DNA of 64,000 nt, taken from the NCBI RefSeq assembly GCF_003334255.1, contig NZ_QOWU01000002.1; one strand, 5' to 3'. Position 1 is the first letter of the stretch; each line of letters starts with the position of its first letter. Below are positions 21,025 to 21,201 of this stretch, piece after piece. The stretch comes from Escherichia coli. Lineage in GTDB: Bacteria; Pseudomonadota; Gammaproteobacteria; Enterobacterales; Enterobacteriaceae. The notes beneath the pieces are model-generated. The model was not told the DNA's origin, did not search any database, and worked only from the letters and a program-made list of their open reading frames with translations. The position numbers and the translations under genes are program-made.

Positions 21025-21201
21025 CCTACTCCACTCCTGCTATGCTTAAGAAATTATTCATAGACTCTAAATAATTCGAGTTGCAGGAAGGCGGCAAACG
21101 AGTGAAGCCCCAGGAGCTTACATAAGTAAGTGACTGGGGTGAACGAATGCAGCCGCAGCACATGCAACTTGAAGTATGACGAGTATAGCAGGAGTGGCAG
21201 C
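21025..21201. repeat. ERIC/IRU (enterobacterial repetitive intergenic consensus) element, variant copy
   Basis: Core GTGAAGCCCCAGGAGCTTACATAAGTAAGTGACTGGGGTGAACGAATGCAGCC...CAACTTGAAGTATGACGAG with terminal inverted repeats CCACTCCTGCTAT / ATAGCAGGAGTGG. Confidence 0.75.

Follow-up and report, generated by a model that had tools for sequence, protein, structure and literature searches.

A canonical ERIC element in the loop of a conserved Shine-Dalgarno-sequestering stem in the Escherichia coli yajO leader

In the spacer between dxs and yajO of Escherichia coli, a canonical ERIC element occupies the loop of a stem that is conserved in the yajO leader and sequesters the Shine-Dalgarno (SD) sequence of this gene. 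We regard this part of the reading as firm. The full composite, in which an antisense start is also placed at the junction between the element and the host arm in K-12-type alleles, is in our judgment probable. The ERIC family, the K-12 copy and its RNA signals in public data sets are already known. What we did not find in the available literature is that the repeat bracketing the element belongs to a conserved anti-SD stem of the host, that ERIC occupies the same loop in at least two lineages, and that the antisense start coincides with the junction of a TG and the ERIC terminus. Each of these points is offered here as a modest addition.

The dxs-yajO locus

All positions below refer to the window, that is, the whole stretch of E. 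coli DNA that was analysed (64,000 nt of contig NZ_QOWU01000002.1). The genes concerned are located in it as follows.

18236-19135, plus strand: ispA
19160-21022, plus strand: dxs, with the stop codon TAA at 21020-21022
21202-22176, plus strand: yajO, with the ATG at 21202-21204 and the end of the open reading frame at 22176

The dxs stop and the yajO start agree with the RefSeq annotation of identical or near-identical E. coli loci, the start being the same one that had been chosen in a first-pass annotation of this DNA. The genes xseB-ispA-dxs-yajO are listed as an operon. The spacer between dxs and yajO is 179 nt long and shows 100% identity to the spacer of K-12 MG1655; the ERIC element in it is unannotated in NC_000913.3. 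For the region around yajO, the window position equals 458,561 minus the U00096.2 coordinate, and the NC_000913.3 coordinate equals that of U00096.2 plus 776. An AGGAG can be read at 21190-21194, 7 nt 5' of the yajO ATG, and the region 21023-21210 has a computed folding energy of -80.4 kcal/mol (z = -8.2). Downstream of yajO, a REP-like hairpin, GCCTGATGAGACGTGACAAGCGTCACATCAGGC (22185-22217), is present in the 53-nt spacer between the convergent genes yajO and pgpA, and a weak Rfam match to naRNA4 is found at 22184-22252 (minus strand, E = 0.28).

The ERIC element and its boundaries

The element and its core occupy the following positions.

21061-21187, plus strand: ERIC/IRU element, 127 bp including the TA at each end, delimited by comparison with four other ERIC copies of E. 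coli and by the 125-bp net difference from empty alleles
21102-21145, plus strand: central core of ERIC with the ERIC1R and ERIC2 primer sites, 42 of 44 positions matching

The first-pass annotation had proposed an ERIC/IRU repeat between dxs and yajO, with a core matching both ERIC primer sites with one mismatch each. Both claims are borne out by the core and by the alignment to other copies. The ERIC1R/ERIC2 44-mer differs from 21102-21145 at two positions, one per primer site, and matches were obtained in none of 100 shuffles. This 44-mer is identical to the consensus of the four other E. coli ERIC copies that were retrieved. The copies, which come from E. coli genomes without an ERIC between dxs and yajO, are located at yafP-prfH, pgk-fbaA and ybhJ-ybhI and upstream of gyrA. 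When the four copies are aligned to the window, their similarity is confined to 21061-21187 and stops abruptly at both ends; the comparison with other copies, which had been suggested as a check, gives a match over exactly this interval. The AT-rich stretch 21044-21060, which had been counted as ERIC, falls outside the alignment and is host loop sequence.

According to a published summary (PMC2229807, Table 1), members of the ERIC family are 127 bp long, end in TA, have terminal repeats of 7 bp and show a target-site duplication, and no transposase is known for the family (PMC2229807). The 7-nt termini of the dxs-yajO copy are TAGACTC and GAGTATA, with TA at both ends, compared with TATACTC and GAGTATA in the other copies, so that a single terminal base is changed. 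For the 127 nt by themselves, one long hairpin with imperfect pairing is predicted (-56 kcal/mol, z = -8.9). The earlier view of a left half (21044-21100) without mirror symmetry to the right one, and of the copy as an indel variant, has to be given up, since 21061-21187 has the canonical length of 127 bp and forms a complete palindromic hairpin. ERIC is dispersed and intergenic, with a median of six megablast places per E. coli genome.

Window positions 21061-21187 are a canonical full-length ERIC/IRU, and the element itself is an ordinary member of a long-known family. With the ERIC/IRU elements described in 1991 (reviewed in PMC2229807) it shares the length of 127 bp, the 7-nt terminal repeats, the TA termini, the core and the long imperfect hairpin, as well as the intergenic and co-transcribed place, the occurrence of several copies per genome and the presence/absence polymorphism among strains. 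It is peculiar only in its site, namely the loop of a conserved SD-sequestering stem, where the element ends 2 nt 5' of the SD.

In Rfam, no family is devoted to ERIC as such, and the best match of the spacer is RF02818 (V_AS5), a Vibrio antisense RNA, whose model positions 1-129 are aligned to 21060-21183 with 52.5 bits, below the gathering score of 96 for this family. The alignment runs over the full length of the model, the core sequence is shared, and V_AS5 resembles a counterpart of ERIC in Vibrio; with a score below the threshold, the element is not a member of this family. It should also be noted that the ERIC core contains a CAGGAG at 21111-21116, which is a second possible partner of the anti-SD CTCCTG at 21034 and might compete with the SD arm.

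The host stem around the element

The inverted repeat that brackets the ERIC element can be divided into the following parts.

21031-21047, plus strand: host 5' arm with the anti-SD, CCACUCCUGCUAUGCUU; the CUCCUGC core and the following UAUG-UU are invariant in 84 of 84 spacers
21048-21060, plus strand: remainder of the original host loop, present in ERIC-free alleles according to the alignment of filled and empty alleles
21181-21197, plus strand: 3' arm of the 17-bp stem, in which 21181-21187 is the ERIC terminus and 21188-21197 is host sequence, GCAGGAGUGG, including the SD AGGAG at 21190-21194

An inverted repeat consisting of CCACTCCTGCTAT (21031-21043) and ATAGCAGGAGTGG (21185-21197) had been placed correctly in the first-pass annotation. 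It extends to 16 nt with 94% complementarity (21031-21046 with 21182-21197). The two 13-nt repeats had been taken for the termini of the element; however, only the ATA at 21185-21187 of the right repeat is ERIC sequence. The repeats are mostly host sequence: the ERIC-free O157:H7 and strain 9 carry ...CCACTCCTGCTATGCTTAAGAAATTATTCATGGCAGGAGTGGCAGCATG, with the arms kept, and these genomes and other genera have CCACTCCTGC...GCAGGAGTGG or covarying versions of it. The AGGAG does stand at the position of an SD, but it is not inside the ERIC repeat as had been supposed, for the element ends at 21187. Because ERIC was inserted in the loop of the stem beside the 3' arm, the AGGAG of yajO is host sequence, and the ribosome binding site falls outside the repeat.

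To describe the stem beyond E. coli, the yajO loci of 80 Enterobacteriaceae species representatives were collected; together with three further E. coli loci and the window they provide 84 spacers. A stem of the CUCCUGC/GCAGGAG type is present in the spacer of all 80 species, and in 75 of the 80 representatives the dxs-yajO spacer is 54-69 nt long with the same arms. Every one of the 84 spacers has CTGCTATG(C/A)TT in its 5' part and (G/A)(C/T)(A/G)GGAG 6-8 nt before the ATG. Covariation was scored on the 14-pair stem with 68 distinct arm pairs, in which 88.1% of the cells are paired; shifting the 3' partner by 1-3 columns lowers this to 33-54%. The seven core pairs CUCCUGC/GCAGGAG are invariant or nearly so and hence uninformative for covariation, which is confined to three or four basal pairs of the stem. 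Among these basal pairs, G-C, G-U, A-U and U-A occur at one position, and C-G, U-A and U-G at another. Double changes are found at four pairs, 27 cells are changed on both sides, and the observed covariation score is reached in none of 500 shuffles. Clear examples are Atlantibacter, with CCUCUCCUGC/GCAGGAGAGG, and Raoultella, with ACGGC.../...GCCGU. These comparisons indicate that the stem predates ERIC and is a conserved host anti-SD:SD hairpin.

The host sequence TATGCTTA (21041-21048) is invariant in the 84 spacers and yet often unpaired, and the stem alone does not account for its conservation. It would form TGcTATGCT, a possible extended -10.

Insertion site and natural alleles

A 579-nt query across the spacer was searched in 5,426 complete E. 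coli genomes. The query is fully covered in 2,844 of them, which are referred to as filled, and about 48% of the genomes have the stem without ERIC; the presence/absence polymorphism that had been thought worth checking is therefore a real one. In the remaining genomes the match is split in two and adds up to 454 bases, which is 125 short of the query. The empty allele, found in O157:H7, strain 9 and others, reads TAATCCCTACTCCACTCCTGCTATGCTTAAGAAATTATTCATGGCAGGAGTGGCAGCATG; it retains CCACTCCTGC and GCAGGAGTGG and has no ERIC between them.

The difference between filled and empty alleles is 125 bp, i.e., 127 minus one TA. As for the target site, the K-12-type allele has TA on both sides of the element, and the empty site of Citrobacter sp. 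MGH106, whose spacer is the closest one outside Escherichia, has a single TA (TTCATAGCGGGAG). The empty sites of E. coli and E. whittamii have TG. The single TA in Citrobacter sp. MGH106 and the 125-bp difference would fit an insertion at TA with duplication, although the TG of the other empty sites keeps this test unclean. Insertion and excision could not be told apart from the flanking haplotypes (380 nt on each side), since the flanks are recombination mosaics in which filled and empty alleles are not separated. Because of these mosaic flanks without separate groups, the filled/empty polymorphism is either old or has been exchanged.

The filled alleles have three variants at the junction of element and host arm. 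The variant GAGTATAGCAGGAG is that of K-12 and the window. A second one, GAGTATGGCAGGAG (TGcCATACT), is carried by BL21/C41, AR_0069 and STEC276 and makes up roughly half of the filled genomes in an evenly spaced sample of the matches. A third, GAGTATAGCGGGAG (CGcTATACT), occurs in O111:H8 and is the same in E. albertii. The latter species has the orthologous ERIC at the same site, with the same derived substitutions and an 80-nt internal insertion. Such a long ERIC form is also present in about 122 E. coli genomes at a match of at least 99%, e.g., GPEC606, and it gives a 257-nt spacer (L095:386-642 in E. coli GPEC606 and L012:1244-1500 in E. albertii). The 80-nt insertion has four small predicted hairpins (-39 kcal/mol) and replaces the 'AT' after GGTGAACGA, at a point that corresponds to about 21147 of the window. 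Another 523 E. coli genomes have a copy of the long form at 90-95% identity, apparently at another locus.

A divergent ERIC lies in the same loop and in the same orientation, with its TA one base from the 3' arm, in Phytobacter diazotrophicus, P. ursingii and Kosakonia sp. S29. An internally deleted ERIC remnant is found at the same site in UBA3516, an uncultured relative, and Phytobacter massiliensis is empty there. The loci are as follows.

L033, L038, L044 (about 1315-1500), L045:1416-1500 and L054:1432-1500: Phytobacter, Kosakonia and UBA3516 loci with the divergent ERIC, its remnant or the empty site

The more parsimonious reading suggested by these sequences is that of two independent ERIC insertions into the same loop, which would make the loop a repeated target.

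Folding of the leader and sequestration of the SD

In the minimum-energy fold predicted for the filled allele, the host stem is kept and closes with 17 bp around the ERIC hairpin, compared with a 14-bp stem in the empty allele. The three pairs are gained where the ERIC terminus GAGUAUA pairs with the host UAUGCUU. The computed cost of freeing the region from the SD to the AUG is 17.2 kcal/mol for the leader transcript and 18.6 kcal/mol for the read-through transcript with ERIC, and 24.7 (leader) or 24.4 kcal/mol (read-through) without it, so that the two alleles differ by about 6-7 kcal/mol. By these calculations the SD is predicted to be strongly sequestered in both alleles, and the lower opening cost with ERIC may be due to alternative pairings, e.g., with the CAGGAG of the ERIC core at 21111.

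The idea of an intrinsic dxs terminator was also considered. It can be ruled out, since the stem is followed by CAGCAUGCAAUAC and has no U-tract, and no intrinsic terminator was predicted on the plus strand in a terminator scan.

The sense leader and Rho

The leader RNA and its candidate promoter are located as follows.

21030-21202, plus strand: yajO leader RNA of about 173 nt, with the 5' end taken from a published 'entire 5' UTR' construct and the 3' end from a Term-seq peak
21015-21023, plus strand: TGgCATAAT, putative extended -10 of the yajO leader, which overlaps the last dxs codons and the stop, 7 nt 5' of the leader 5' end

In the supplement of Adams 2021 (PMC7815308), the yajO cloning primer for the 'entire 5' UTR' starts with TCCACTCCTGCTATGCTTAAG / TCCACTCCTGC..., which is window position 21030. 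The position of this primer suggests that the sense transcript starts at 21030, for which TGgCATAAT may serve as an extended -10. This motif looks embedded in the conserved W-L-A-stop codons of dxs. A Term-seq 3' end with a Rho-dependent flag and a score of 38,352 is given for NC_000913.3 438,135(-) in the same study (Adams 2021, PMC7815308), and it maps to window position 21202, on the first base of the yajO ATG, 5 nt beyond the stem. In that study (PMC7815308), a yajO '5' UTR + ORF' lacZ fusion is more than 2-fold up in rhoR66S.

Two other promoter candidates found no support. One is TGCTATGCT (21037-21045) as an extended -10 with a start near 21052, which would produce a leader without the anti-SD arm; it is unsupported, and the leader of Adams et al. 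starts at 21030. Among the Cappable-seq sites in the available part of the list, which covers plus-strand sites only, there is no entry starting with 4375 for this promoter. The other, a hybrid host/ERIC promoter from a consensus scan (TTAAGA-18-AATAAT, 21046-21075), has no supporting start in the readable data. The SMRT-Cappable-seq, Rend-seq and EDL933 TSS supplements have no yajO entry.

The yajO leader resembles the class of leaders with an SD-sequestering hairpin and Rho attenuation (Adams 2021, PMC7815308) in having a structured leader, a 3' end at the boundary between leader and open reading frame and a reporter that rises in the rho mutant, and yajO is in fact among the genes tested there. 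In contrast, the anti-SD pairing, its conservation and the ERIC in the leader were not found in the accessible part of that paper.

An antisense start at the junction

The features on the opposite strand are listed below.

21182-21190, minus strand: candidate extended -10 of a sigma-70 promoter, TGcTATACT, with TG and c from the host arm and TATACT as the ERIC terminus; transcription start 7 nt downstream of the hexamer
20964-21175, minus strand: putative antisense RNA of about 212 nt, delimited by the transcription start and a 3' end, which extends over most of ERIC and the host loop, takes in the anti-SD arm and reaches 59 nt into the end of dxs
20982-21168, no strand assigned: p19-captured RNase III dsRNA cluster S-43 (Huang 2020, Table 2, 437,393-437,579)

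On the minus strand, a TG at 21190-21189 is followed by TATACT at 21187-21182, which has A at position 2 and T at position 6 of the hexamer. The minus strand of K-12 reads ...CCACTCCTGCTATACTCGTCATAc... at the antisense start, in which TGC is the complement of the SD arm. A Cappable-seq start is recorded at U00096.2 437,386(+) with a score of 38.7, most entries in the available part of the list having scores of 1.5-10 (Ettwiller 2016, PMC4782308). This start maps to the A at window position 21175 on the minus strand, so that the order is TG, one base, TATACT, six bases and the start. No usable -35 is found at the right distance from TGcTATACT. The same portion of the list has a weak start at 437,489(+) (U00096.2, score 1.6), which corresponds to 21072 on the minus strand, in the left arm of ERIC.

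An antisense 3' end at NC_000913.3 438,373(+), antisense to dxs, is given by Adams 2021 (PMC7815308) and maps to window position 20964. We infer that the start at 21175 and the 3' end at 20964 belong to one transcript. Among coding genes, S-43 ranks fourth in abundance of the p19-captured RNase III dsRNA clusters (Huang 2020, PMC7373196), and its locus was called 'New AS', with an antisense start and an antisense transcript downstream of dxs, in the same work (Huang 2020, PMC7373196). The coordinate system used for S-43 was confirmed from the gene table of Huang 2020 itself. When that paper (PMC7373196) was searched for 'repeat', no mention of the ERIC at the S-43 locus was found.

For comparison, the ERIC between ybhI and ybhJ of K-12 (L102, NC_000913.3 803,322-803,448), whose terminus is mutated to GAGAATA, was used as a control. 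Its plus-strand-facing end has TATTCT after AAA, with no TG, and there is no plus-strand start for it in the available part of the Cappable-seq list; this is a single control, in which the hexamer is also altered. Partial promoters in the termini of ERIC have been described in the literature (PMC3488235). Taken together with the sequence of the junction, the reading of the ERIC terminus and host arm as an antisense promoter in K-12-type alleles appears well supported, albeit indirectly.

Similar junction promoters are known for the Correia elements (CREE) of Neisseria (Snyder 2009 and Siddique 2011, as cited in PMC3488235), where a -10-like box in the terminus of a MITE makes up a working promoter together with host sequence, as is proposed here. 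The differences are that the element family and the host are others and that the promoter between dxs and yajO faces inward, antisense to both genes, with an activity deduced from the position of the start. As for Yersinia, ERIC has been reported to modulate the flanking mRNA (De Gregorio et al. 2005, as cited in PMC2229807 and PMC10969869). In both cases the element is co-transcribed and close to the upstream stop, and its RNA structure is proposed to act on the neighbours. The Yersinia mechanism, as related in these two sources, is that ribosomes unmask an RNase E site located in the ERIC terminus, whereas the processing documented at dxs-yajO is the action of RNase III on a sense/antisense duplex and Rho-dependent attenuation.

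Discussion

Based on these observations, the following mechanism is proposed. In the spacer, which forms the yajO leader, the 5' arm of the host hairpin (CUCCUGC and its flanks) would pair with the SD region (GCAGGAG and its flanks) and would most likely keep yajO translation low. The poorly translated message may then be exposed to Rho-dependent termination and to trimming back to the stem. The 127-bp ERIC was presumably inserted at a TA at the 3' end of the hairpin loop, adjoining the SD arm. In the RNA, the element should fold on itself with the host stem closing around it, and the SD would stay sequestered. In K-12-type alleles the TATACT of ERIC abuts the host CTCCTGC on the opposite strand, which would create the extended -10 TGcTATACT. 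An antisense RNA would start 7 nt downstream of it and run through ERIC and the anti-SD arm into the end of dxs, and its duplexes with the sense transcript would be cleaved by RNase III. The antisense RNA would cover the anti-SD arm and leave the SD uncovered, and it could either relieve the sequestration or trigger RNase III cleavage. The limitation of yajO translation by the stem, and any net effect on the expression of yajO or dxs, are parts of this proposal. Three unexplained K-12 signals coincide with one repeat: the cluster S-43, a fairly strong antisense start, and a strong 3' end at the start codon of yajO.

It is quite possible that ERIC is a neutral passenger here, in which case the antisense start, the dsRNA and the 3' ends would be by-products without effect on dxs or yajO, and the host stem would be what matters. 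Indeed, the host stem and the sequestration of the SD are kept with or without ERIC, none of the filled, empty and long alleles, which occur side by side in E. coli on mosaic haplotypes, shows signs of being required, and the junction variants expected to weaken the promoter are common. However, the antisense start with its score of 38.7 stands well above most entries of the same list, S-43 ranks fourth among the coding-gene dsRNA clusters, and the computed costs of opening the SD are about 6-7 kcal/mol apart between the alleles, none of which is proof of a fitness effect.

Could the stem, with or without ERIC, instead serve mainly as a REP-like hairpin that protects the 3' end of the xseB-ispA-dxs mRNA, rather than control the translation of yajO? 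We consider this rather doubtful as the main role. A protective hairpin has no need for SD-specific pairing, yet the core complementary to AGGAG is invariant in the 68 distinct sequences. The very strong RNA 3' end at 21202, 5 nt after the stem, does speak for protection, as do the listing of the operon as xseB-ispA-dxs-yajO and the lack of a U-tract and of a predicted plus-strand intrinsic terminator, which fits exonuclease stalling. The two roles can coexist.

An ERIC indel variant with 13-nt terminal inverted repeats of its own, the right one supplying the yajO SD, is hardly credible any more: the 13-nt repeat is real, flanks the ERIC core and has the AGGAG within its right copy, but about 48% of E. 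coli genomes, and other genera too, have it without ERIC, other ERIC copies have nothing similar beyond 21061-21187, the length of the element is canonical and its fold a complete palindrome, and the view of empty alleles as excision footprints with ERIC-derived arms is contradicted by the absence of the arms at the four other ERIC loci.

A canonical ERIC in the loop of the host stem is thus the reading that we prefer, and a more far-reaching version of it, which we think unlikely, can be stated. It holds that ERIC made a new antisense promoter in K-12-type E. coli, that RNA pairing or RNase III cleavage frees the SD from the anti-SD arm, and that YajO expression is heritably different among four alleles. 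The four natural alleles are the empty one, that with TGcTATACT, those with TGcCATACT or CGcTATACT, and that with the long ERIC. If this were true, there would be heritable variation in YajO, an alternative route to DXP.

In any case, the locus offers a natural allelic series, with ERIC in about half of the E. coli genomes and at least three junction variants, which can be used for testing the effect of a MITE on dxs and yajO, two genes that are relevant to isoprenoid engineering. It also suggests that an inverted repeat bracketing a mobile element may be an older regulatory stem of the host, and not the element's own.
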